Of a DNA stretch of 47,162 nucleotides, positions 3,329-45,344 are shown piece by piece. Positions within the stretch are counted from its first letter, which is position 1. The number at the start of each line of letters is the position of its first letter. The stretch spans positions 1 to 47,162 of the forward strand of contig JBGUHM010000047.1 in NCBI GenBank assembly GCA_045112115.1. Direction: 5' to 3'. Both the position numbers and the translations under genes were made by a program. The notes under the pieces are model-generated. The model saw only the letters and a program-made list of their open reading frames with translations. It was not told the DNA's origin and ran no database searches. This DNA is from Sodaliphilus sp. Its GTDB lineage: Bacteria > Bacteroidota > Bacteroidia > Bacteroidales > Muribaculaceae.

Positions 3329-4708
3329 ATGATGAATCAATTATTCAAATCGATACTGATTGCGGCTATAATCATGCTGTCTTCCCACAAGGCGTCGGCC
3401 TACGATTTCCGAGTTGACGGCGTGTGCTACAATATCATTGACGCTAACACCGTTGAGGTCACATCTTCCGGCACCAGTCCCAACTACAACGACGTGGAAC
3501 ACCTCGTCATACCAGCACAGGTCACTCACGACGGACGCACCTATCAGGTGGTCTCGATTGGATTTTACGGTCTCACTGGCGCTAGCGACTTGAAAGCCCT
3601 CACTATTTCTGAGGGGCTTATATCCATAGGGCAATGCGGGCTGAACGGTTTGTCGTCGATTACCGAACTCACTCTGCCGTCGTCGTTGCTGAGTGTTGGC
3701 GGATGGGCTTTCGAGAATCTCGACAACGTGCGTTATATCAACTGTCTTGCCAAAAAGGCCCCGATTATTGACGGATATTGGTTCCATAACAAGAACGCTA
3801 TTCCGCAATGTCCGTTCTACGTTCCTGATGGCTCGCTTGCATCATACCTGGCAAACGACTACTGGAGCGCGTTCAATCTACAGGGGAATGACAGCGAGAC
3901 CAACGACGATATTGACCTTGAAGCCGATGCCATCGTGGTGGGCAGCGGCAAGGACATGACCGAGGTCGAACCATTTTTCAACTGGTGGAAGAAGTCGTAC
4001 GTCGGCAACGAGGTTATATATCTAAAGGAAGAGTTGGAAGGCTTGAACCCTGGCGACACAATAGTATCTCTCACTTATAAATGCTCGAAGGGCTCGGCAA
4101 GCGGAGGCAACTTCAACTTCCGTCTGAAGAACACTACGCAATCATCTTTCCCCCAGAATGTCGTCGGGTCGAACTCGTCGACCGACACCTCGCTTCTTGC
4201 CATTAGCTGTGATGACCAGATTCACGCCAATGTCACGCCGAACTTATACATTGCCGGCGACCGCGTCACTGTCGTTCTCACAGAACCGTTCATCTACGAC
4301 GGAGAGAACATAATGATTGACGTGAGAAACACGGCGCCGGCAGCGTCGCAGGGATGGTGCTACTTTGAAGGTACAAAACACACTACGCGCAGGGATGTCG
4401 CATGGAGAAACGCCAACTCCGAGAACTGCGAGAAGGACGGCTTCCACGTGGACTACACCCCCTTCGGCATCGAGGACTACGGCGTGTATCCCTTCGACGG
4501 CGTGTGCATCATCCCGAACGTCACAATCTTGTTCAGGAAATACGTCGAGCAAAACAGTATCGTGATCGCAGTCGAGCAACCGCCAGCTGCCGCCCGCGAG
4601 GTCAGCGCAATCTACACAGTAGGCGGACAACGCGTCACCGACATCGCCGCACCCGGTGTCCACATTGTCCGCTACACCGACGGCACTACTGCCAAGATAA
4701 AGCGCTGA
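3329..4708 (+). CDS. secreted BspA-like leucine-rich-repeat protein with a putative T9SS C-terminal sorting domain
   Basis: A signal peptide (MMNQLFKSILIAAIIMLSSHKASA) is followed by LRR_5-like repeats (LVIPAQVTHDG..., LTLPSSLLSVGGWAFENL). The C-terminus AIYTVGGQRVTDIAAPGVHIVRYTDGTTAKIKR resembles the Por/T9SS CTD. The start was moved from TTG 3299 to ATG 3329. Confidence 0.8.
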   Translation: MMNQLFKSILIAAIIMLSSHKASAYDFRVDGVCYNIIDANTVEVTSSGTSPNYNDVEHLVIPAQVTHDGRTYQVVSIGFYGLTGASDLKALTISEGLISIGQCGLNGLSSITELTLPSSLLSVGGWAFENLDNVRYINCLAKKAPIIDGYWFHNKNAIPQCPFYVPDGSLASYLANDYWSAFNLQGNDSETNDDIDLEADAIVVGSGKDMTEVEPFFNWWKKSYVGNEVIYLKEELEGLNPGDTIVSLTYKCSKGSASGGNFNFRLKNTTQSSFPQNVVGSNSSTDTSLLAISCDDQIHANVTPNLYIAGDRVTVVLTEPFIYDGENIMIDVRNTAPAASQGWCYFEGTKHTTRRDVAWRNANSENCEKDGFHVDYTPFGIEDYGVYPFDGVCIIPNVTILFRKYVEQNSIVIAVEQPPAAAREVSAIYTVGGQRVTDIAAPGVHIVRYTDGTTAKIKR

Positions 4709-4844
4709 AGCGTCAAACGGCTGAAAGCTACCACCCATTATTGACCCAGCCGTGAGAGCACCAGCGACGATGGCCGGGGGCGCTGTCGTACCCACCAATC
4801 AAGGAGGCACCGAGGACGTGTCAAAATTCCAATTATCCATTTTT

Positions 4845-4890
4845 GACAGTCCTTATGTTTGTAGACTCAAACGCAAACATAGGAACTGTC
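4845..4890 (+). terminator. long stem-loop (17 bp stem: gacagtccttatgtttg / caaacataggaactgtc) downstream of the LRR gene
   Basis: A near-perfect inverted repeat with a 12-nt loop. There is no strong T-tract, so this may be a terminator or an RNA-stability/regulatory hairpin. Confidence 0.4.
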
Positions 4891-4989
4891 AACAATAGTC
4901 GTCTATCTGTCTCATTCTTTATTTTGACACACTCTCATCATCACTATTTGTAATTTCTCGCAAATTATCCACAATCCGCCTCATTTTCC

Positions 4990-5063
4990 ATAGGTTCAAA
5001 CCGAGCCAAAACGATTCAAATCGAATCAAATTACATGGTTTTAAATTTGAATCGGTTTGAACC
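4990..5063. repeat. dyad-symmetric element, copy 2: ataggttcaaaccga gccaaaac gattcaaatcgaatcaaa ... aatttgaatcggtttgaacc
   Basis: A 12-bp perfect inverted repeat GGTTCAAACCGA/TCGGTTTGAACC with nested GATTCAAAT/ATTTGAATC. It shares the 15-bp ATAGGTTCAAACCGA with copy 1. Confidence 0.6.
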
Positions 5064-5257
5064 ATTCACCTTAATTGCTGAATTTGTATATTTGTGCACC
5101 GGATTGGAAACATTCCGCAACATTTTGAAATAAAAAAGCGACATGTTGATACTTGTGATCTGAGACTGACAGACTACGACCTCAACAGAGCAGTCCTCGC
5201 TTTATGTGTTATATATTAACCGTCACCTCATGGACTGCTGGACGGTATTTAATAAAT

Positions 5258-5800
5258 ATGGAAAACCAAAGTACAAAGTACGGTAATGTACAGAAGTGTC
5301 CGCAATGTGGCGCTCCAGTGGAACCAATGGCTGTGAAGTGCAGCACATGTGGCTATGAATTTCGAAATGTTGAAGCACTTAAGTCTGCTCAACAATTGGC
5401 TGCAAAACTTGAAGAAATTGAAAACGCATATCGAGATAAGGGTATGGGTTTCATGGGAAGTGCTGATCTAAGAAAATTACAAGAAACTGCCACAGCAATT
5501 AAAGTCTTTGCGATACCAACAGCCAAAGAAGACCTGTTGGATTTTGCTATATCAATGCAAAGTAGATGGAATACAGAAGAAGTTGATTATTTGCGAAAAG
5601 CTTTTAAAGCTAAATATGACGAATGCATCAACAAAGCAAAGATTCTATTCCCGAACGATCCCATGTTCCAGGGCTTATTTGACCAACATAACAAAGACAA
5701 TAAAAAGATATCGCCCAAGACCAAGATGTTGATAATTATTGGACTGGTGATGTTATTAATGCTTGCGATGATAATCGGTCTTGGATTTGCATTTAAATAA
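5258..5800 (+). CDS. zinc-ribbon protein with a C-terminal transmembrane anchor
   Basis: Begins MENQSTKYGNVQKCPQCGAPVEPMAVKCSTCGYEF (a C-x2-C ... C-x2-C zinc ribbon). A helical region follows, then the C-terminal TM MLIIIGLVMLLMLAMIIGLGFAF. I took the internal ATG of the 5204 ORF as the start. Confidence 0.6.
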   Translation: MENQSTKYGNVQKCPQCGAPVEPMAVKCSTCGYEFRNVEALKSAQQLAAKLEEIENAYRDKGMGFMGSADLRKLQETATAIKVFAIPTAKEDLLDFAISMQSRWNTEEVDYLRKAFKAKYDECINKAKILFPNDPMFQGLFDQHNKDNKKISPKTKMLIIIGLVMLLMLAMIIGLGFAFK

Positions 5801-5840
5801 TGAATTGTAGTCTCCTTTAAATTGAATCCAATATTAAATT

Positions 5841-7217
5841 ATGGCATTATTTGGAAGAGGTAAAAGTGGCGGAATGATGAATGTCATCCGTTGCGACGAG
5901 GAACAATACCTTGTGTGGAAATGGCGCCCACTTGGGCAAGACGTTAACTCAACGTCGCGCGAGAACAGCATACGTTACGGCAGCAGTCTGCGAGTGAAGG
6001 ACGGCGAGGTTGCTGTGTTTGTGTATAAACAGAAAGACGGCACGATGCAGGACTTTATTGAGGGCCCATACGATGACACTATAAAGACGGCCAACTTCCC
6101 AGTACTTTCAAGCATTGTGGGACTTGCTTTCGGTGGAGAGTCGCCGTTCCAGGCCGAGGTCTATTTCATAAACCTACAAGGGAACAATCAAATCAAGTTT
6201 GGAATTCCTTATTTTGATGTGACCGACCCTAACAATGATTACCTGCCGGTACCTGTAGCTGTTCGCGGGACAATGACTTTCGCTCTTGAGGATTATCGCA
6301 ACTTCATAAAGCTAAACCGCTTGATAAATTTTGACTTAGAGGCGTTTAAGACACAAATTAGAGACACTATGATTCGCAAGATCAAAGGCATAATTACCAA
6401 TGTGCCTCATGATTTGAATTTGCCTCTGGTAAGGATTGAAAGCAAGGTTGACGAGATATCCGACTTGGTTGAACAACGCCTTAACGGTCGCATGGACGAG
6501 TTCGGTGTTACAATGAAACACATCGACTTATCAGCAATCGAATTGGATAAAGAGAACTCCAATTACGCGGAACTCAAGGCACAAACAGCCAACATAATCT
6601 CCAACACACGCATTATGCAGAGTGAAATTAATTTGCGTAATATGGACGACATGCAACGTCTAAACACGCAAAACATGGAAGAAACTTTGCGAATTCAGCG
6701 TGAGGAAGCTCAGAGAGCGCAGAAACTTCAGACTGAAACAAACTTCCTGGGCGCACATGCGCTTAATCAGCAGACCGATGTGCTCAAGACCGGTGCACAA
6801 AGTCTTGGACAAATGGGCCAGATGAATCTCGGAGGCGGTTCCGGTATGAACCCAGGAGGAGCGATGGCTGGAATGATGATGGGAGGAGCGTTAGGACAGC
6901 AAATGGCTGGTATGATGCAGAATGTTGGCCAGCAAGTGCAGATGGGAATGCAACAGCCTCCTCAGATGCCGCAGTCACAGTACTTTGTTAACATCAACAA
7001 TCAGCAGACGGGGCCGTTCTCCGTACAACAGCTTGCCCAGATGGCCCAAAGCGGTCAGGTGACGGCACAGAGCTACGTATGGAAGCAGGGAATGCCTCAA
7101 TGGGATATTGCAGGCAATGTGCAGGAACTGCAGTCATTGTTTACCCCGGCAATGCCTCCAATGCCTCCAATGCCTCCAATGCCAGGCGGCGGTAACACAC
7201 CTCCGCCAATGCCTTGA
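5841..7217 (+). CDS. Band-7/SPFH-like protein (PF13421-like family, often annotated virion core protein T7 gp14-like) with a C-terminal DUF4339/GYF-like domain
   Basis: The N-terminal ~250 aa are paralogous to the protein at 44028..45344. Next come a Q/N-rich coiled region and a G/M/Q low-complexity linker. The motif YFVNINNQQTGPFSVQQLAQMAQSGQVTAQSYVWKQGMPQWDIAGNVQELQSLF matches DUF4339. The protein ends in a PPMPPMPPMP tail. Confidence 0.8.
   Translation: MALFGRGKSGGMMNVIRCDEEQYLVWKWRPLGQDVNSTSRENSIRYGSSLRVKDGEVAVFVYKQKDGTMQDFIEGPYDDTIKTANFPVLSSIVGLAFGGESPFQAEVYFINLQGNNQIKFGIPYFDVTDPNNDYLPVPVAVRGTMTFALEDYRNFIKLNRLINFDLEAFKTQIRDTMIRKIKGIITNVPHDLNLPLVRIESKVDEISDLVEQRLNGRMDEFGVTMKHIDLSAIELDKENSNYAELKAQTANIISNTRIMQSEINLRNMDDMQRLNTQNMEETLRIQREEAQRAQKLQTETNFLGAHALNQQTDVLKTGAQSLGQMGQMNLGGGSGMNPGGAMAGMMMGGALGQQMAGMMQNVGQQVQMGMQQPPQMPQSQYFVNINNQQTGPFSVQQLAQMAQSGQVTAQSYVWKQGMPQWDIAGNVQELQSLFTPAMPPMPPMPPMPGGGNTPPPMP
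7151..7186 (+). repeat. 9-bp coding tandem repeat (aatgcctcc)x4 encoding PMPPMPPMP
   Basis: Direct repeats are visible in the sequence at the 3' end of the 5841..7217 CDS. Confidence 0.7.
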
Positions 7218-7235: not shown

Positions 7236-7577
7236 ATGGATGACAACAGTTTTTTCTCGGTTGACAGACTTGTTGAGTTTGGACTTGGTATGGCCATGGC
7301 CCAACAGATGGTAGGCATGATGAACCAGACCATGCAAACCATGCAGATGCCAGGCAGGCTGCAGAGGGTACAAGTAGAACCAATGTTCTATGTTGTTTTG
7401 GATAATAATCCTGTTGGGCCATTAAGCGATAAAGATTTGGCTCAACTTGTGCTGAATCACAAAGTGACCAAAGACACCTTATCATGGATGCCAGGTATGA
7501 CAACCTGGAAACCCATTGAGCAAGTGCCAGCAATACTGAAAGTAATCGCATTGACACCATCACCAATCAATATATAG
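7236..7577 (+). CDS. small stand-alone DUF4339/GYF-like domain protein
   Basis: An M/Q-rich N-terminus is followed by MFYVVLDNNPVGPLSDKDLAQLVLNHKVTKDTLSWMPGMTTWKPIEQVPAIL, which is DUF4339-like. A good AAAGGAG Shine-Dalgarno sits 8 nt upstream. The gene begins 18 bp after the Band-7 gene. Confidence 0.7.
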   Translation: MDDNSFFSVDRLVEFGLGMAMAQQMVGMMNQTMQTMQMPGRLQRVQVEPMFYVVLDNNPVGPLSDKDLAQLVLNHKVTKDTLSWMPGMTTWKPIEQVPAILKVIALTPSPINI

Positions 7578-7581
7578 TAAG

Positions 7582-7935
7582 ATGAAAATAAGTATAATAC
7601 CAACAATTATAGCATTGGCTTTAGCCACACTTATCGGCGTTCTTATCTGGTCGTGGTGTTCATCTGCCGATAATGCCACTGCAATAGGAATCACAACGGC
7701 GGCATCACTTGCTCTCACCTTAATCCCGAGTATGGGACTGAAGCTGGAAAGTGGACGGGTGCAGACTAATGTTCGTGTGTTATCAGTCGTTTTTGCGCTG
7801 ATATTTCTGGTGGTTGCTATTATCATGTGTTTCATAACGAGTAAGACAATAATAACCTACTATGTCATAGAAGGTGTTATAGCATTGATATTTATTTCAA
7901 TCCTATATGGCTTAATTAAAATCAAAGATGTTTAA
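7582..7935 (+). CDS. small polytopic membrane protein (about 4 TM helices)
   Basis: Four hydrophobic stretches of about 20 aa each. The gene sits directly downstream in the same orientation, at the start of the low-GC region. Confidence 0.55.
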   Translation: MKISIIPTIIALALATLIGVLIWSWCSSADNATAIGITTAASLALTLIPSMGLKLESGRVQTNVRVLSVVFALIFLVVAIIMCFITSKTIITYYVIEGVIALIFISILYGLIKIKDV

Positions 7936-13129: not shown

Positions 13130-13400
13130 TATCTTTGCAGCAGAAATACAACCAACGAGTTCATTGAAATAATTCAAGGATAACGAATTGTCCACGTCAA
13201 AGTAGATTGGGATACTCTTCAAACTAAATGAAATGCCGAGACCGGTATCTGCGCCAATGGCGGGCCTCGACCTTTTCGGAGGTGCTTTCACGCCGGAGGA
13301 TTACAAAGGTGCAGATGCTCTCAAATCCTGTATTTTTCGGAGTTTCATCACATCCTTTGGCGTGGATTTTTTGTGTCCTTGTGGATAAGTTTTGCTTGAG
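13130..13400 (+). ncRNA. candidate small RNA or long structured 5' leader downstream of a TATCTTTG -7 box
   Basis: A TAnnTTTG box lies at 13130..13137. It is followed by about 250 nt with no credible ORF, which contain GC-rich hairpins (ggcgggcctcgaccttttcggaggtgctttcacgccgg; ggatt…aatcc followed by a T-run). A second -7 box (TAATTTTG, 13426..13433) serves the glycosyltransferase gene. Confidence 0.2.
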
Positions 13401-36977: not shown

Positions 36978-38033
36978 ATGAGAAAAATTCAATTCAAAGC
37001 TTTATTGGCGATCCTTACCATAGCAATGGCTTTACCCGCTTTTGTTGGTGCGGCGAACAAAGAAACCATGTACTACGATGAGGATGGTTATGTAGTGCAG
37101 AACAAGGGACAGGCAACGTATTACCGCGAACTCACAAAAAAGGGAAGCAAATATGAGGCTAAAGATTTCTACGTTACTGGCGAGAAATTCTGTTCCGGAA
37201 CAATCGTAATGATTGACTACGACAACTATAATGGCACTAAATGGGACGGAAATATCAAGAAGTATTACCGTTCAGGCGAGTTGTTGTTCGAAGGCAAATA
37301 CCGTATGGGCTATCCTGAGGGTGAGCATTACACATATTTTGAGCGTAAGAACAAGAACGAGAAGGAGTTACGGGTTAAATCGGTAAAGAGATACGACTTG
37401 CAGGGTGAACTCGATGGTCAAGCTGTGTCTTACTATGAAAACGGTAATATCGAGGAGTTGCAAACTTATAAGCACGGACTGGCTGATGGCGAGTATTTAG
37501 CTTATTATGAAGACGGTACGCTTAAGCGTAAAGGTGCTTACCAGAGTGATATGCGTCACGGTAACTTTATAACTTTTTACGAGTCAGGAAAAATGAAGGA
37601 AGTTGGTCGGTTCTACAACGACGAACTCGACGGCCGGATCTTAAACTATTATGAGTCAGGTATTATAAAGTCGGTTTTCAATATGCGTGACGGCGAGTTG
37701 CATGGCGACCGGTTCTTGTATTTTGAGAATGGGCAGCTGAGTGATCGCCAGCACTTCAAAGATGACAAAGCCGATGGCATGTGTGTGTCGTATCATGAGA
37801 ACGGAATGATTGCCATAATTGGCACTTTTAAAAACAATGAGATGAATGGCACGTTCCGTTGGTTTGATGAGAATGGCAAAAAGACCGATGAAGGCAACTA
37901 TGTGAACGGCAAGCGTCAGAACAGTAGCAACAATAACAGCAACAATCTGAGCAATAACCGTAATCGGAATAACAACTCACTCAACATCGACATGCGTCGT
38001 TTGTTCCCAAGTCGTAAGAAAGACAACAAGTAA
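36978..38033 (+). CDS. secreted MORN-repeat (YwqK-like) protein with an N/S-rich C-terminal tail
   Basis: A signal peptide is present. Repeated YYENGxLxxxGxYKxGxxDGxxxxYYExG MORN_2 units follow, then low-complexity NSSNNNSNNLSNNRNRNNN. Confidence 0.8.
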   Translation: MRKIQFKALLAILTIAMALPAFVGAANKETMYYDEDGYVVQNKGQATYYRELTKKGSKYEAKDFYVTGEKFCSGTIVMIDYDNYNGTKWDGNIKKYYRSGELLFEGKYRMGYPEGEHYTYFERKNKNEKELRVKSVKRYDLQGELDGQAVSYYENGNIEELQTYKHGLADGEYLAYYEDGTLKRKGAYQSDMRHGNFITFYESGKMKEVGRFYNDELDGRILNYYESGIIKSVFNMRDGELHGDRFLYFENGQLSDRQHFKDDKADGMCVSYHENGMIAIIGTFKNNEMNGTFRWFDENGKKTDEGNYVNGKRQNSSNNNSNNLSNNRNRNNNSLNIDMRRLFPSRKKDNK

Positions 38034-38045
38034 ATATTTAGTAAG

Positions 38046-38078
38046 TATAGAGGCCTCGGCTGTCAAACGACAGTCGGG
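38046..38078 (+). terminator. rho-independent terminator after the MORN gene
   Basis: cctcggctgtc-aaac-gacagtcgggg followed by ctttttg. Confidence 0.6.
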
Positions 38079-38246
38079 GCTTTTTGTGTGCTGCTGTGGC
38101 AAAGCGTCCATTTGCTCCATAATTTATATTATGTTAAATTGGTTTAATGTGAACTACACTCTACTTTCTTTTGCGAAATCAAAGATGAGAATTGAGATTA
38201 CTTGATATAGAATCTATATATATGTATTTAACTGAACACTTGTTAG

Positions 38247-38325
38247 GATCTGCTCCATCGTTAGCATCTGTATCTTCGTTAGAATCTGTCCCATCGTAAG
38301 CATCTGTACCTTCGCAATCTGTTCC
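38247..38325. repeat. degenerate about 18-bp tandem repeat (ATCTGnnCnTCGnnAGn) x4.5
   Basis: gatctgctccatcgttagc / atctgtatcttcgttaga / atctgtcccatcgtaagc / atctgtaccttcgca / atctgttcc. Confidence 0.6.
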
Positions 38326-38329
38326 TTTA

Positions 38330-38723
38330 TTTGTCTCGATTTGTCTCAATTTGTCTCAATTTGTCTCAATTTGTCTCACTTTGTCTCAATTTGTCTCACT
38401 TTGTCTCACGTTTGAGACAATTATTCTCTTGATTTACAATGCGATGGGCTGAATTTGTCTCATTTTGTCTCACTTTGTCTCACGCTTGAGAGGGGTATTC
38501 TATTGGTCTTCAATGTAATAGGCTACATTTGTCTCACTTTGTCTCACTTTGTCTCACGCTTGAGGCAATTATTCTCTTGATTTACAATGCAATAGGCTAA
38601 ATTTGTCTCATTTTGTCTCATTTTGTCTCACTTTGTCTCATTTTGTCTCACTTTGTCTCACACTTGAGACGGTTATTCTCTTGATTTATAGTGTGATAGG
38701 CTAAATTTGTCTCAAATCTCACG
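38330..38723. repeat. higher-order tandem repeat: arrays of the 10-mer TTTGTCTCA(N) (8, 3, 3, 6 and 1 copies) alternating with four copies of a conserved ~44-bp unit (c/gNTTGAGAcaaTTATTCTCTTGATTTAcAATGcgATAGGCTaAA)
   Basis: Read directly from the sequence. Each 44-bp unit begins with the inverted copy TGAGACA of the 10-mer core TGTCTCA, so each array end can form a hairpin. There is no ORF. The region lies 85 bp upstream of the ECF sigma gene. Confidence 0.85.
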
Positions 38724-38807
38724 TTTACACTCCCCTACTGCCTATTAGATTTTTTGGTCTCTTGTTGTTATGTTTTGCTGATTCATTCGTATCAGTAATA
38801 AACGAAC

Positions 38808-39311
38808 ATGGGACTTGATTTGATTACATCCTCGTTTCTGGGTTTGCGCGACAAACTGCACCACATCGCATTGCAATATTTGCGGAGTGATGAGGATGTG
38901 CAAGACGCCCTACAGGATACTTGGCTCAAGTTGAGCGACAGCGATGTTGCGACATCACAGGAAGCGAAAAACAAACTCGTTGCCGTTCTCAGGAACACTT
39001 GTATCGACAGAATAAGAAAAGCAAAAGCTGTATCTATCAACGATATAGGTGTTAGTGAAATGCCCCATTACTGTGTCGATATCGAAGATGTTGAACATCT
39101 TGAACAACTTCTTCAACGACAGTTGACCCCTTTACAACAACGTATCTTCAATCTCATCGTTCACGACGGTTGTGATTATGGGCAGATTGCCGAACAGCTT
39201 TCGATGAATGTTGAGGCGGTGAGAATGAACATGTGTCGAATACGCAAAAAAATCAGTGAAACCTATAAAAAGTTGAACTATGAAACAAAGCGAAATGGAA
39301 ATCAAGCTTGA
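38808..39311 (+). CDS. RNA polymerase ECF-type sigma-70 factor
   Basis: The region-2-like segment reads VQDALQDTWLKL. The region-4 HTH reads LTPLQQRIFNLIVHDGCDYGQIAEQLSMNVEAVRMNMCRIRKKI. Confidence 0.8.
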   Translation: MGLDLITSSFLGLRDKLHHIALQYLRSDEDVQDALQDTWLKLSDSDVATSQEAKNKLVAVLRNTCIDRIRKAKAVSINDIGVSEMPHYCVDIEDVEHLEQLLQRQLTPLQQRIFNLIVHDGCDYGQIAEQLSMNVEAVRMNMCRIRKKISETYKKLNYETKRNGNQA

Positions 39312-39756
39312 AGAGTTGGAGCAACTGTGCTTGCTGTATCGTGACAGCCGACTTACGGTCCTGGAGGAAGCCGAGTTGGAATTCGTGCTATTGTGTTGTG
39401 ACTACGACTCTCCCCTAATCAAAGAAACAAGAGACTTGATGGCGGTTTCACATGTTCTGAAATTGCGGGAGATTCCACATTCGCACAAAAGCCTACGGCA
39501 GTGGTTCGTGCGCGTTGCCGCTTGTCTGGTGATGGTTGCCGGTGTTTTTGGCGTCTATCGTTATATTCATCCCAATGTAAACGACAACTGTGTTGTCTAT
39601 ATCTCTGGAAAGAGGGCGAACGATGAGGTAGCCCGCAAAGTCGCAGAAGCCGATGTGGAAAAAATGCGTCGGTTCATGGTTGTTGTCAACAGGCAGAAAG
39701 CATCGGAGCAGGCTAAAGTAGAAGAATTCATGAATCATATAAATAAAACGAGATGA
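39280..39756 (+). CDS. putative single-pass membrane anti-sigma factor
   Basis: It overlaps the sigma gene end and has one TM (WFVRVAACLVMVAGVFGVY). The call rests on position within the ECF operon only. Confidence 0.45.
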   Translation: MKQSEMEIKLEELEQLCLLYRDSRLTVLEEAELEFVLLCCDYDSPLIKETRDLMAVSHVLKLREIPHSHKSLRQWFVRVAACLVMVAGVFGVYRYIHPNVNDNCVVYISGKRANDEVARKVAEADVEKMRRFMVVVNRQKASEQAKVEEFMNHINKTR

Positions 39757-40136
39757 AACGACTGGTAATCATTATATTTAGCGTGATAATCGCTGTTTCG
39801 GCCTTTGCCAAACCGCCGAAACTCAATGTTGAGAACCTGTTTGACGGCCGCTTCAACAACACTAAGAACGTTACCGTTTCCATTTACCGGAACAATGGCA
39901 ACTACTATCGCGGCATTACCGTTAAGAACAACCCTGACATTATACAGAAGATTGCCAATGCCCTGGAAAAAGATGTTCCTAAAGCATCGGACTATTCAAA
40001 TCATCAGGGCGAGGACGGCTGGTACACATCGTTGCAAGTGGTCAACAACGGAGAAACTATCTATATAGGGTTGCAACGAGACCGGCATGGCGGTGGATTT
40101 TTCTTTATTCAAGGAAAGGAAAAAGCATTTAAATAA
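39753..40136 (+). CDS. secreted DUF4252-like protein of the ECF operon
   Basis: An ATGA overlap with the previous gene. A signal peptide is present and the protein is about 127 aa. This matches the typical Bacteroides ECF-associated gene order. Confidence 0.5.
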   Translation: MKRLVIIIFSVIIAVSAFAKPPKLNVENLFDGRFNNTKNVTVSIYRNNGNYYRGITVKNNPDIIQKIANALEKDVPKASDYSNHQGEDGWYTSLQVVNNGETIYIGLQRDRHGGGFFFIQGKEKAFK

Positions 40137-40153
40137 CAATCAATCAGTAAATT

Positions 40154-42304
40154 ATGAGCAGACTTTTTGCGGCTGTCATTATGATGGCTATGCTTCCTGT
40201 ATCTCTTTTGGGGCAGGAACTAAACGATTCGACAGCAATTGATTCCATAGGTGACTACTGGAGTAAGGTGCTGGAACTTAACGAGGTAGTGGTTATGGGG
40301 TACCGCACGGTGCTGAAACCGGAACCTGACCGTATTGTCTATCTAACCAAAAACGACTCCTACGCAAAAGGATTGAACGGTATCGAAGTGTTGGACCGCA
40401 TACCCCGCGTTTCGGTGACTGGCGACGAGGTTTCGGTCGCGGGCAAATCGTCGGTGAGATATATCGTCGACGGGCGTTTGTTGGAAATGCCTGACGATGC
40501 TGTCGCTATGCAACTGAAGAACCTTCAATCGTCGGGTATCGAGAAGATAGAACTGCTTACCACCCCTCCGGCAAAATATGGCGCCGGCACCAACGTGGCG
40601 TACATCAGCATCACCACACGCAATGAGTCGTTGGGCACACGCGGCAACTTGTGGGCGGGCGGAAATATTCGGGAGCAATTCAACTATTTGCTTGGAGCGC
40701 GTATATCGCACACCACTCGAAAGGTCGAGATTTCGGCTGATGCCAGTTGGAGCGACAACAAGGGCATCAATGATCTGGACCGAAATTATTCTTTTAGCGA
40801 TTACGAAAAAGTGTCGAAACGCAGCAACCATTTCACTAACAGGACACTGGGTGCAAACGCACTCTTAAAATACAAATTCACCGACCGCATATGCGCCGGC
40901 GCCATTGTCAATTTCAGTTCCAACCGACTCAATAGTCAACTTAATGATGTCACAGTTGAACACGACATGGTTTTCAAATCGTATAACCATTCTCCGTCGC
41001 GACCTAATAATGCGTTGACGTTGACAGCATTTAATGATTGGCAGTTTGATGATAGCGGCAAAATGCTTAGTATTACATATAATTATTTCAACAAGTCGTC
41101 ACGTTCGTTTTCCGACGTGCTGACCGAATGGACTGGCAATGAGTCGCATCTTTCAAATGAAGGGCACAACCGCTATCATATCCATTCAGTTAAACTTGAC
41201 GCTGTTTTGCCGTTTGTCGGATTCAAGGTAGAGACGGGTGCGGCTTTCACCGGGATTGGCAATAATACAATGTTGAGAGTCAAGCGTTTCGAACTCGGCC
41301 AATGGATTGACGATTCTTCCCAAAGCAACCAGTTTGACTATGACGAGAATACAGCCGCTGTATATGTGGGTGCGGAAAGAAACTTTACCGACTCATTTTT
41401 CGCCAAGCTTGGGCTTAGATATGAGCATACCAGTGTTAATGGCCGTCAACATATTGGCTCCGTGAGCCATGTCAATAGTTACTCTTACGTGTTTCCCTCG
41501 TTGAGTATGAGCTGGAGCCCGTCTGGAGCGGGGCAACTGGCCCTCTCCTACTCCATGGGAATCACTCGGCCGAATTTTGCTGACCTAAATCCGTTCCGTT
41601 ACTATACCACAACAAGCGATTACGTAGCCGGTAATCCCGACTTGAAACCGGGCATCGCCCACAATGCCGAAATCAGCTACAGCTACAAGGGCGTCTATGC
41701 CGTGTTATACAACTCTTACAACCACAACTCGATAAGTTATGTGACACGATTCAATGGCGATGGCAGTCAGCAGACTGTCCCAGAGAACTGTGTCGACAAC
41801 AATAAGGCCGGCCTCTATGCCTCCTACTATAGAACAATACTTGACTGGTGGAACATCAACGTTGGGGCCGAGGTGTTTCACAACTATGCCAAATCGCGAA
41901 TCGATGATTTCAGAGAACTTGACCAAAGCGATTGGAGCGGCAAACTTGAGCTAAATACATCGTTTATGCTCACCCGTCGGCATAATCTTATTCTCAACCT
42001 GCGCTTCAGCCACTATTTCCCGTATAACGAGCGCATGATACATTATGAGTCGATGTCGCTGATTGGCTGCGAGCTCCGATATATGTTGCTTGACAACCGC
42101 CTTACGCTGACGGCTTCGGTGAATGACCCGTTCGGCTGGAATATTACCCGCTCCACCGCCTATTATAAAGATTACACAATCAAGACCCGCAACAATATCC
42201 ATTCACATGCTGTTCAGTTCCGAATCTCTTACACATTCGGAGGCAACAAGGTCAATAATGTCTACCGCGACACAAAGGAACGCGAGTCTTCCCGCTCCTA
42301 CTGA
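40154..42304 (+). CDS. outer-membrane beta-barrel protein (TonB-dependent-receptor-like, OMP_b-brl_3 type)
   Basis: A signal peptide and a plug-like N-terminus are present. Alternating beta-strand patterns follow, and the C-terminus reads …RISYTFGG. Confidence 0.75.
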   Translation: MSRLFAAVIMMAMLPVSLLGQELNDSTAIDSIGDYWSKVLELNEVVVMGYRTVLKPEPDRIVYLTKNDSYAKGLNGIEVLDRIPRVSVTGDEVSVAGKSSVRYIVDGRLLEMPDDAVAMQLKNLQSSGIEKIELLTTPPAKYGAGTNVAYISITTRNESLGTRGNLWAGGNIREQFNYLLGARISHTTRKVEISADASWSDNKGINDLDRNYSFSDYEKVSKRSNHFTNRTLGANALLKYKFTDRICAGAIVNFSSNRLNSQLNDVTVEHDMVFKSYNHSPSRPNNALTLTAFNDWQFDDSGKMLSITYNYFNKSSRSFSDVLTEWTGNESHLSNEGHNRYHIHSVKLDAVLPFVGFKVETGAAFTGIGNNTMLRVKRFELGQWIDDSSQSNQFDYDENTAAVYVGAERNFTDSFFAKLGLRYEHTSVNGRQHIGSVSHVNSYSYVFPSLSMSWSPSGAGQLALSYSMGITRPNFADLNPFRYYTTTSDYVAGNPDLKPGIAHNAEISYSYKGVYAVLYNSYNHNSISYVTRFNGDGSQQTVPENCVDNNKAGLYASYYRTILDWWNINVGAEVFHNYAKSRIDDFRELDQSDWSGKLELNTSFMLTRRHNLILNLRFSHYFPYNERMIHYESMSLIGCELRYMLLDNRLTLTASVNDPFGWNITRSTAYYKDYTIKTRNNIHSHAVQFRISYTFGGNKVNNVYRDTKERESSRSY

Positions 42305-44027: not shown

Positions 44028-45344
44028 TTAGAGGTTGGCAAGAACTTCACGTTTCACAGCATCGTATTCGCTTTGCTCGATGAGCCCGGCGTCAAGTAGT
44101 TTTTTCAGCTTAGCCAGTTTCTCCATCGGGTCGTCGGCCGGTTGCTGTGCAGGGGCGGCGGTTCCCGCGGCTACACCCGCCATGGCACCTGCAGCCATAC
44201 CTGTAGCCATTTGCTGTCCAGGGATAGGCGGTTGCTGTCCAGGGATAGGCGGCTGCTGTCCGTGGATAGGTGGTTGTTGTCCATAGGGCTGCTGGCCGTA
44301 AGGCTGCTGTCCATAGGGCTGTTGTCCGTAAGGCTGCTGTCCATAGGGCTGCTGTTGTCCATAGGGCTGCTGGCCGTAAGGCTGTTGTTGTCCATATGGG
44401 TTCTGGTTTATGCCGCCGAATGTGTTGGCAGCCATCTGGCCGAAGGCACCGCCAGCGGCCATACCCATGCCCATACCCATGCCCATACCGGCCATGCCGC
44501 CTACTTGTCCCTCGTTGGTGCTTACGCCGTGAGCCATGTCCTGCATGATTTCCATGCCTTTGATGGTCTGGTAACCGGCGCCCATGAGGTCATACTCACG
44601 CTTGCGTGCGTAGGCGTTCTCGAGATGCTGACGGTTGGGGTCGTCCTCGGGGATGTCCATCGCCGAAATCGAGAAATTCTGCAGCTTAAGGCCATATTCA
44701 CCGAGTATCTCGGCTATCATGGGGGTGATCTTTGTAGCGAAGGTGTCGAGTTCGGCGCAGATGCCCAGCAACTCCTCGCCGCTGTTCTTCAACCCTTTGG
44801 CGATAGTAGATTTAATCGACTGTTGGAATTGGTTTGAGAAATAACGTTCCAAATCGCCGGGTTTGAGTTGGTTGAGATTCGAACCTACAAGTTTGGTGAT
44901 AAACTTGGCGCTGTCGTCAATCATTATTTTATAAGAGCCACGTGCCTTGATGCTGGTGGCTATGCCTTGAACCGGGTCGCGCAACTGGATGGGCGAGTCG
45001 GTACCCCAGAGAATCTCTTGAGTGTCGCTCTTGCGGATGAAATACACGAAGCAGTTGAACGTGGAGATGCCACCGCTGAGCATGTTGCGCAGGCGGCTCA
45101 GGAACACGTAGTTCTGCGTTGAAAGTATATATCGTCCGTTGGTGAAAATCTGCTGAATCTCACCGTTCTTCACAAATACGGCCTCTTCGCCTGGGTTGAC
45201 TGTAAGCACCGAATGGGTGTTGAAGTCTTCTTCCGGTTGTTTCCAGACGAGCACTCCTGCAGGTCCTGAATTTTTCAACGACTCCAAGATGTGTTTCTTT
45301 CCACCTTGGTAATTGGCTTCATTTGGATTGCGAAATAAACTCAT
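44028..45344 (-). CDS. Band-7/SPFH-like protein (paralog of 5841..7217) with a GM-rich linker, (PYGQQ)n/(PPIPGQQ)n repeats and a C-terminal SHOCT domain
   Basis: The N-terminal ~270 aa align with 5841..7217 (MSLFRNP…VLVWKQPEE vs MALFGRG…YLVWKWRP). The C-terminus [31 protein letters not shown] is a SHOCT motif. Confidence 0.8.
44208..44398 (-). repeat. in-frame coding tandem repeats: 21-bp x3 (PPIPGQQ) plus 15-bp x about 9 (PYGQQ)
   Basis: Near-identical DNA units ccatagggctgctg(g/t)ccgtaaggctg… are read directly from the sequence. Confidence 0.8.

Follow-up and report, generated by a model that had tools for sequence, protein, structure and literature searches.

A Nested, Strain-Variable Decamer Array Upstream of an ECF Sigma Factor Operon in Sodaliphilus sp. 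(Muribaculaceae)

Architecture of the Repeat Array

Contig JBGUHM010000047.1 of the Sodaliphilus sp. assembly GCA_045112115.1 (Bacteroidales, Muribaculaceae), analyzed here over its 47,162 nt (hereafter the window), carries upstream of an operon headed by an extracytoplasmic function (ECF) sigma factor gene an array of 21 head-to-tail copies of the decamer TTTGTCTCA(N), at positions 38330–38715. The copies are distributed in five blocks of 8, 3, 3, 6, and 1, kept apart by four 44-nt units, and are preceded at 38242–38314 by a degenerate 18-bp tandem repeat of about four copies (4.1 copies and 76% match according to Tandem Repeats Finder, TRF), a diverged version of which occurs in the sister strain L123. 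This nested structure, including the block counts and the preceding 18-bp repeat, had been described in an initial annotation made from the letters alone, and direct reading, TRF, and a pattern search all bear it out; TRF reports a higher-order period of 74 bp (3.4 copies, 83% match). All 20 exact copies of the TTTGTCTCA 9-mer returned by a scan of the window lie inside the array. When up to one mismatch is allowed, the 9-mer occurs 33 times in the window, compared with 14.6 ± 3.9 times in shuffled sequences, and none of 100 shuffles reached 33.

On the plus strand, block 1 (eight copies, 38330–38409, the first being TTTGTCTCG) is followed by unit 1 (38410–38453), which opens with an inverted copy of the motif, TGAGACAA, able to pair with the last decamer in a hairpin at 38401–38420 (−9.1 kcal/mol). 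Block 2 (three copies, 38454–38483) leads to unit 2 (38484–38527; −6.1 kcal/mol, z = +0.3), the most diverged of the four, whose inverted core has decayed to TGAGAGG and whose TACA end forms TACATTTG with the next decamer. Block 3 (three copies, 38528–38557) precedes unit 3 (38558–38601; −8.5 kcal/mol), which has the inverted core TGAGGCAA, with a G-U wobble that pairs on the plus strand only, and forms TAAATTTG at its junction with the next block. Block 4 (38602–38661) contains six copies and is followed by unit 4 (38662–38705), with the inverted core TGAGACGG and again the junction TAAATTTG, at 38702–38709, 106 nt before the ATG of the sigma factor gene. The array closes with a terminal decamer (block 5, 38706–38715) and a degenerate copy (TTTGTCTCAAATCTCA; ...AAGTCTCA in other strains), and this end (38706–38722) is invariant in five haplotypes, including that of L123, which has no array.

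Some details of the earlier description had to be narrowed. The inverted core TGAGACA, attributed to every unit, is intact (TGAGACA/G) in units 1 and 4 only, unit 2 having TGAGAGG and unit 3 TGAGGCA, and the proposed common ending, ATAGGCTAAA, closes units 3 and 4, whereas units 1 and 2 end otherwise. The absence of coding potential holds for the plus strand, on which the list of open reading frames (ORFs) has no entry over the array, but not for the minus strand, where an ATG-less ORF of 56 codons (38349–38179) runs over the 18-bp repeat from a TTG start within the decamers, with no −7 promoter box. Translated on the minus strand, the 18-bp repeat would give a hexapeptide repeat, (D/E)(G/D)TD(S/A)N, both in the window and in L123 (1–95), despite their nucleotide divergence; the ORF could be what is left of a decayed gene, or it could be open by chance.

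The gene upstream of the array encodes a MORN-repeat protein (36978–38033) and has a strong intrinsic terminator at 38050–38086 (plus strand; −30.5 kcal/mol, z = −6.5, followed by TTTTT), which is the true 3′ end of the upstream transcription unit and lies 240 nt before the decamers. The downstream cassette (38808–42304, plus strand) comprises the ECF sigma factor gene (38808–39311), a 158-aa ORF (39280–39756), a 127-aa ORF (39753–40136), and a gene for an OMP_b-brl_3 outer-membrane barrel (40154–42304). The third of these genes had been annotated as DUF4252; what we found instead is a weak match to DUF6108.

Variation among Related Strains

By exact-protein look-ups, we retrieved eight contigs, from eight independent sequencing runs, that belong to the same or a sister strain. 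Six of them stop 130–300 nt upstream of the sigma factor gene, at or just past the repeat, and the other two (L180 and L182) stop at the start of this gene or inside it, a pattern typical of short-read assembly at a repeat. An exact-match look-up of the MORN protein, aimed at the left flank in other strains, returned no record. The identity of L114 to the window over its last 207 nt, block 4 with its six copies included, and the same two-module layout in L177 confirm that the array is not an assembly artifact. In L177, the last block has five decamers (six in the window) and the preceding one at least four (three in the window), these and all other strain copy numbers being taken from short-read contigs. 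Three further contigs (L178, L179, and L181) carry other sequence variants of the last unit. The sister strain L123, whose sigma factor is 99% identical, lacks the arrays: It has one TTTGTCTCA, one diverged unit with a TGAGGC start that preserves pairing, and one TTGTCTCA, that is, one module, whereas the window has four.

The strain comparison proposed in the initial annotation thus uncovers differences in copy number, as slippage predicts, at the level of both the decamer blocks and the modules. Because L123 has a single module and the relatives vary in copy number, we interpret the array as a recent, lineage-specific amplification of a single ancestral module. Such polymorphism is what is expected of the hypermutable tract of a simple-sequence-repeat contingency locus, with counts that here derive from short-read contigs; a polymorphic intergenic tandem unit of tens of base pairs (TRF period of 74) is also what defines a minisatellite of the variable-number tandem repeat (VNTR) type, like the mycobacterial interspersed repetitive units (MIRUs).

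Constraint on the Decamer Motif

Within positions 1–9 of the decamer, the copies agree at 188 of 189 sites, whereas position 10 is A in 6 copies, C in 11, and T in 4, interleaved within blocks, and the units are 69–89% identical to one another (mean 79%). The two TGTCTCA copies bordering the unit are invariant in five haplotypes, including L123, where there are no arrays for slippage to homogenize. In the arrays of Duncaniella sp. described below, we found no degenerate GTCTCA core, and the spacers between adjacent cores vary and are almost all made of pyrimidines only. Slippage by itself would carry the tenth base with the other nine, from which we infer selection on the motif: A near-invariant 9-mer next to a free tenth base and diverging units suggests that the motif is under constraint, for which the likeliest reason would be recognition by a putative sequence-specific factor. 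Restriction-like avoidance of GTCTCA was considered and rejected, as the window contains 12 occurrences for 15.3 expected (order 4) and the numbers are unremarkable in other loci.

The ECF Cassette in Other Muribaculaceae

The four-gene ECF cassette is kept in other Muribaculaceae, with sigma factors 69–73% identical to that of the window and unrelated genes upstream, and no array was found at these orthologous cassettes. Alignment of their upstream regions shows that conservation is confined to the last ∼45 nt before the ATG, where TGTTAY-N16/17-CGTAT is followed by TAATAAACG in the ribosome-binding region. In the window, this motif reads TGTTAT-N16-CGTAT (38766–38792, plus strand) and is the sole upstream element common to the orthologous cassettes, with counterparts at ∼3958–3984 in L115 and ∼3937–3964 in L118. 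The general ECF consensus has ..AAC at −35 and CGT at −10. On the basis of this consensus and of its layout, the motif would be an ECF-type −35/−10 pair and likely forms an autoregulated ECF-type promoter. It begins 51 nt downstream of the last decamer, and the array does not touch it.

Since the orthologous cassettes have no array and the conserved motif lies downstream of it and untouched, the array is not a conserved ECF control element. The earlier view of it as the control region of the operon is therefore not sustained: It is no conserved part of that region, and cassettes with 69–73% sigma factor identity do without it. The suggestion that GTCTCA resembles an ECF −10 element fails as well, because within the 10-bp phase of the decamers it has no −35 partner 16–17 nt upstream.

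GTCTCA Arrays at Other Loci

A scan for two tandem decamers, with one genome per species, returned at least 113 loci in many phyla. Duncaniella sp. MGBC104426, from the same family as the window, has at least six YYY(Y)GTCTCA arrays (TTT-, TCT-, TCC-, or TTTT-GTCTCA, with a period of 9–10 nt), as counted in four 8-kb loci picked by the decamer search. These arrays contain 6–15 copies each, followed by 2–5 inverted TGAGAC copies, and are found just 3′ of genes for SurE, a HAD/ACT phosphatase, a Na:Ala symporter, GAPDH, and RelA/SpoT and of a gene with AAA_25 and HTH_7 domains, some of them being placed between convergent housekeeping genes. An inter-array unit of ∼115 bp is common to three loci (L068 ∼390–650, L073 ∼6430–6720, and L085 ∼7470–7810), which follow the same nested logic as the window. 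Where metagenome contigs cover the same loci as the metagenome-assembled genome (MAG), the two differ in copy number (8 vs. 4; 9 vs. 8).

The ∼115-bp unit shows few substitutions, which are synonymous or conservative in one frame (MRQTLIRCVAFRMDIWHYRPLIAAFAV...), and could be a small ORF or a small RNA (sRNA); a protein-database search with the translated Duncaniella array and unit gave no match. At L073 (4938–6718), the gene with AAA_25 and resolvase-type HTH_7 domains (5070–6227, minus strand) directly follows RelA/SpoT and has arrays on both sides. It may have inserted into an array or be associated with one, and it has no homolog in the other sequences compared.

No array was detected in ∼150 kb around the relA and ECF orthologs of other Muribaculaceae, because of which we regard the family as patchy. 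A conserved array downstream of relA can be rejected, as one Duncaniella array follows relA but the ∼100 kb around the relA orthologs of other Muribaculaceae have none. L197, a relative at the genus level, shares the TPR-RelA-MORN synteny with the window, and its intergenic region after MORN (4660–5020) contains five TGTCYCA direct motifs (ACTGTCCCA twice and three more), together with an unrelated (A)AATTCGTG decamer array. Short tandem repeats seem to arise readily at this syntenic position. An interspersed repeat unrelated to adjacent genes had been named beforehand as an outcome that would speak against control of the ECF operon; the Duncaniella arrays beside housekeeping genes correspond to this description.

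Matches in other phyla are more difficult to interpret. In a viral collection, the real decamer pair had 20 matches and two composition-matched shuffled pairs had 7 and 7, from which it follows that many two-copy matches are background. Among the matches listed across phyla, the gene context is convergent in 17 cases, divergent in 16, tandem in 32, inside an ORF in 13, and at an edge in 35; these contexts are heterogeneous, and the idea of a consistent one was discarded. An all-versus-all BLAST of ORFs within 2.5 kb of these matches revealed no shared neighbor protein other than generic families (ABC ATPases) and one Bacteroidota integrase group at tRNA genes. In the literature, the 9-mer turns up in primers only, and we found neither a paper on Muribaculaceae intergenic repeats nor an earlier description of the family.

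Origin and Possible Roles of the Array

Taken together, these observations lead us to favor, with a confidence slightly better than even, a scenario in which the array is a lineage-specific, strain-variable nested VNTR that belongs to a family of GTCTCA-array/hairpin repeats, akin to the bacterial interspersed mosaic elements (BIMEs) and repetitive extragenic palindromes (REPs) or to MIRUs, rather than a regulator dedicated to the ECF operon and conserved with it. An ancestral module made of TTTGTCTCA, a short loop, an inverted TGAGRC, ∼35 nt, and then TTGTCTCA would have been amplified. To judge from the copy-number differences, slipped-strand mispairing in the decamer blocks would change the number of decamers, and misaligned recombination or replication between blocks would duplicate the whole 74-bp module. 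The family would consist of patchily distributed Muribaculaceae arrays of Y3-4-GTCTCA with inverted TGAGAC caps, in intergenic positions beside unrelated genes. Any effect on the ECF operon would then be secondary, the candidates being extra sigma-A-like −7 boxes, weak hairpin/T-rich stops, phased T-tracts, and altered spacing to a motif binder. Control of the operon by phase variation is possible.

Several points weigh against this scenario. The copy numbers derive from short-read assemblies, in which repeats may be collapsed. There is one array only in the 47-kb window and none in the ∼150 kb from other Muribaculaceae, and the notion of a dispersed family rests on a single Duncaniella species; moreover, the kinship of the arrays of the two lineages is deduced from their common decamer and cap, and the Duncaniella arrays were found by decamer search. 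The strong conservation of the motif points to a function and fits poorly with a purely selfish or neutral repeat. Finally, three of the four unit-decamer junctions create a perfect Bacteroidetes −7 box, the last at a normal distance from the ATG, and the terminal TTGTCTCAA(A/G)TCTCA pair is in a common position for activator binding, ∼43 nt upstream of the −35-like element.

These junction boxes also count in favor of a different proposal, that of a contingency or rheostat locus, in which slippage of the decamers and gain or loss of modules would tune transcription of the ECF cassette, either because more or fewer sigma-A-type promoters are present or because regulator sites upstream of the ECF-type promoter change in number or distance. 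The Bacteroidetes sigma-ABfr promoter has TTTG at −33 and TAnnTTTG at −7 (PMC7366714). TAnnTTTG is a genuine promoter signal in the window, where 13 of 36 boxes fall 8–160 nt upstream of a co-oriented gene, for 6.2% of positions (a ∼6-fold enrichment). Because the decamer opens with TTTG, perfect boxes arise at the junctions at 38524, 38598, and 38702, the last 106 nt from the ATG; a TTGA within the unit is invariant in five haplotypes, and strains do differ in copy number. However, the −33-like element of the unit is only TTG, located 18 nt upstream of the box, whereas a spacing of 20 nt is the commonest for TTG/TTTG in gene-proximal boxes (6 of 13), and the −7 box of the last unit varies between strains, reading TGCATTTG, TGAATTTG, or TCATATTG. 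The junctions therefore have the −7 box of a sigma-ABfr promoter but neither its usual −33 spacing nor conservation of the box in related strains. A contingency tract would also be expected in an ORF or in or adjoining the core promoter, whereas this one has no plus-strand ORF, ends 51 nt upstream of the conserved motif, and is missing from orthologous operons. In addition, a 10-bp unit preserves helical phase, which makes it a poor on/off spacer, and the same kind of array occurs between convergent housekeeping genes in Duncaniella. Given these objections, we regard a contingency or rheostat locus as unlikely.

The constraint on the motif could alternatively indicate an array of binding sites, in which decamers phased by 10 bp would present sites on the same face of the helix to a putative GTCTCA-specific protein, such as a response regulator of the winged-helix type or a factor acting on the nucleoid or on DNA topology, and amplification would add sites. 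We find this rather unlikely; the core operator would be the palindrome TTGTCTCA-N4-TGAGACAA. The 9-mer and its GTCTCA core are far more constrained than the tenth base, the spacers, and the units, even where there is no array, and, among the matches listed from public genomes, 37 of 114 direct pairs have inverted cores within 150 bp, for ∼6 expected from background; the five direct TGTCYCA motifs that L197 has at the syntenic position are also consistent with such sites. On the other hand, no candidate binder was found: The matches listed have no neighbor protein in common, and the AAA_25+HTH_7 protein of Duncaniella has no homolog elsewhere. Furthermore, there is no promoter for an array to control where it lies between convergent genes, and GTCTCA is neither enriched nor avoided outside arrays. 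The more specific combination of the two proposals, in which Y3-4-GTCTCA arrays would be the recognition array of a putative GTCTCA-specific factor and the slippage-changed number of sites would act as a rheostat on the sigma factor/outer-membrane-barrel cassette, strikes us as distinctly improbable.

It is very unlikely that the array consists of tandem promoter-terminator modules, producing a short decamer-repeat RNA that acts as an sRNA or sponge or forming stacked weak terminators that insulate the ECF operon. The inverted core of the unit and the last decamer can fold into an 8-bp stem and a 4-nt loop, with TTATTCTCTT coming next, and a terminator consensus scan found such a hairpin plus TTATTCTCTT in three of the four units for 0.7 expected. 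The −7 boxes at the junctions would supply the promoters, and the G-U wobble variant TGAGGC in unit 3 and L123 retains pairing on the plus strand only. The unit hairpins are weak, though, with energies of −6.1 to −9.1 kcal/mol (z from +0.3 to −2.3) and an interrupted T-tract, against −30.5 kcal/mol for the MORN terminator nearby; shuffled sequences fold as well as the whole region does (z = −1.1), and the promoter boxes are not conserved. Rfam searches gave no match with 38000–38850 in a permissive scan, none with 13 related loci, and, at the gathering threshold, nothing in the whole window besides a 6S RNA elsewhere; no tRNA or tmRNA was found.

Only the alternation of repeated and less-repeated segments recalls a clustered regularly interspaced short palindromic repeat (CRISPR) array or iterons of plasmid or phage origin, and both can be dismissed: CRISPRs have 23–55-nt repeats, unique spacers, and cas genes, and iterons adjoin a rep gene or an origin of a plasmid or phage, whereas the repeats here are 10 nt long, the "spacers" are 69–89% identical to one another, and neighbors scanned against Pfam from ∼18 kb upstream to ∼7.5 kb downstream contain no cas, rep, integrase, or transposase domain; these neighbors are core chromosomal genes, and BLAST against 72,556 plasmids and 50,697 phages revealed no similarity. 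The initial annotation was thus right to set CRISPR aside, but its iteron-like option does not stand.

Comparison with Known Repeat Systems

In Enterobacteria, BIME/REP mosaics are intergenic, often just 3′ of genes or between convergent genes, and combine short hairpin motifs, in direct and inverted orientation, with conserved linkers; they amplify in tandem, and their copy number differs between strains. The GTCTCA arrays resemble them in being intergenic, in their direct and inverted hairpin motifs with linkers, in tandem amplification and strain variation, and, in Duncaniella, in occupying several loci per genome. They differ in that the window array lacks a ∼35-bp imperfectly palindromic unit in alternating orientation and a GTAG head and instead has a direct array with a 9–10-nt period and 1–5 inverted copies at one end, as well as in their low density (one array in 47 kb) and patchiness in the family. 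We know of no RAYT-type transposase (REP-associated tyrosine transposase) for this family; none of this Y1 type was seen among the neighbors of the window and Duncaniella loci, in which no search aimed at RAYT was made.

In Mycobacterium tuberculosis, the intergenic VNTRs of the MIRU type are reported to show phase-variable tandem-repeat copy number (PMC12817950). Like them, the window array is intergenic, has a period within 40–100 bp (74 bp), is polymorphic in copy number, and lies between co-oriented genes; unlike them, it is nested, with a decamer microsatellite in each minisatellite unit, has hairpin caps, and contains a motif far more conserved than the rest of the unit.

Contingency loci with simple-sequence tracts upstream of promoters include the TAAA tract of Neisseria nadA and the T-tract rheostat of Helicobacter sabA. 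The window array shares with these a hypermutable short repeat upstream of a promoter, the length of which could alter the geometry between regulator site and promoter. It differs in that the tract lies 51–437 nt upstream of the conserved −35-like element and its 10-bp unit holds the helical phase, that equivalent arrays are present where there is no promoter, and that any effect on expression is putative. Decameric direct-repeat operators are also recognized by OmpR-family regulators, for example, the "tor boxes" of Escherichia coli TorR, of which there are up to four. The phasing of 10-bp direct repeats upstream of a promoter is similar, but the window array has 21 copies interrupted by units, and its cognate regulator is only putative.

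Phase variation in Bacteroidales has been described as DNA inversions (PMC7641763; PMC10939037). If a rheostat acting through a recognition array did exist at this locus, gut Bacteroidales would have a type of phase or graded variation based on simple-sequence repeats, and a dispersed repeat family, with look-alikes that recur in other phyla, would be newly defined. Muribaculaceae are dominant yet poorly studied gut commensals, and a hypervariable decamer array, with an apparently constrained sequence, beside an envelope-stress-type sigma factor operon provides a ready marker for strain typing and a concrete candidate for repeat-based regulatory variation or a new DNA-binding specificity. A neutral element of the BIME or VNTR type would still matter, because short-read assemblies break near the array in all samples examined and because a position upstream of an operon does not imply regulation of this operon.

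Flanking Genes and Look-Alike Motifs

The array is hosted by a segment of a Muribaculaceae chromosome. According to Pfam, the upstream neighbors are core genes, encoding LepA, a UmuC-like polymerase, HtpG, a ClpB-like ATPase, GyrA, a TPR protein, RelA/SpoT, and the MORN-repeat protein; beyond the ECF sigma factor lie the two small ORFs, the OMP_b-brl_3 barrel, a zinc-ribbon protein, an SPFH protein, and TatC. The closest named homologs of the ECF sigma factor and RelA/SpoT of the window come from Muribaculaceae MAGs. Elsewhere in the window, a Bacteroidales-1 (6S-like) RNA is found at 13195–13373 (plus strand; 122 bits for a gathering score of 60), with a TAnnTTTG box upstream (13130–13137). 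Dense 12–33-bp tandem repeats at 44187–44489 (minus strand) belong to an ORF (44028–45344), in the C-terminal part of an SPFH/Band-7 protein ending in a SHOCT domain, and probably encode a low-complexity linker of the Gly/Pro/Gln type.

Three groups of similar motifs deserve mention in their own right. In the uncultured, AT-rich bacterium CSMAG_1171 (L015, L027, L045, L100, and L103) and the metagenome SDBU01 (L137, L140, and L147), we observed a dispersed element of ∼250 bp with conserved flanks, in which TTTGTSTCA decamer arrays are followed by TGAGACA, ∼34 nt, and TTGTCTCA with a T-run, an order that resembles the window module; it has no match in Rfam. In Coriobacteriia (L010, L014, L033, L036, L048, L126, and L138), the palindromic element TGAGACAAAGGGACTGTCCCTTTGTCTCA is followed by an extra CTTTGTCTCA and occurs at several loci in several genera (Olsenella, Collinsella, Parvibacter, and Tractidigestivibacter); with its use of the same 9-mer, it resembles a dispersed hairpin of the REP or terminator type. 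Lastly, at five Bacteroidota loci (L013, L018, L110, L111, and L113), TTTGTCTCA(N)TTTGTCTCA lies 60–70 nt from the 3′ end of a tRNA gene, with an adjoining tyrosine integrase gene in three of them, and an integrative element may use these pairs as arm-type or excisionase sites.

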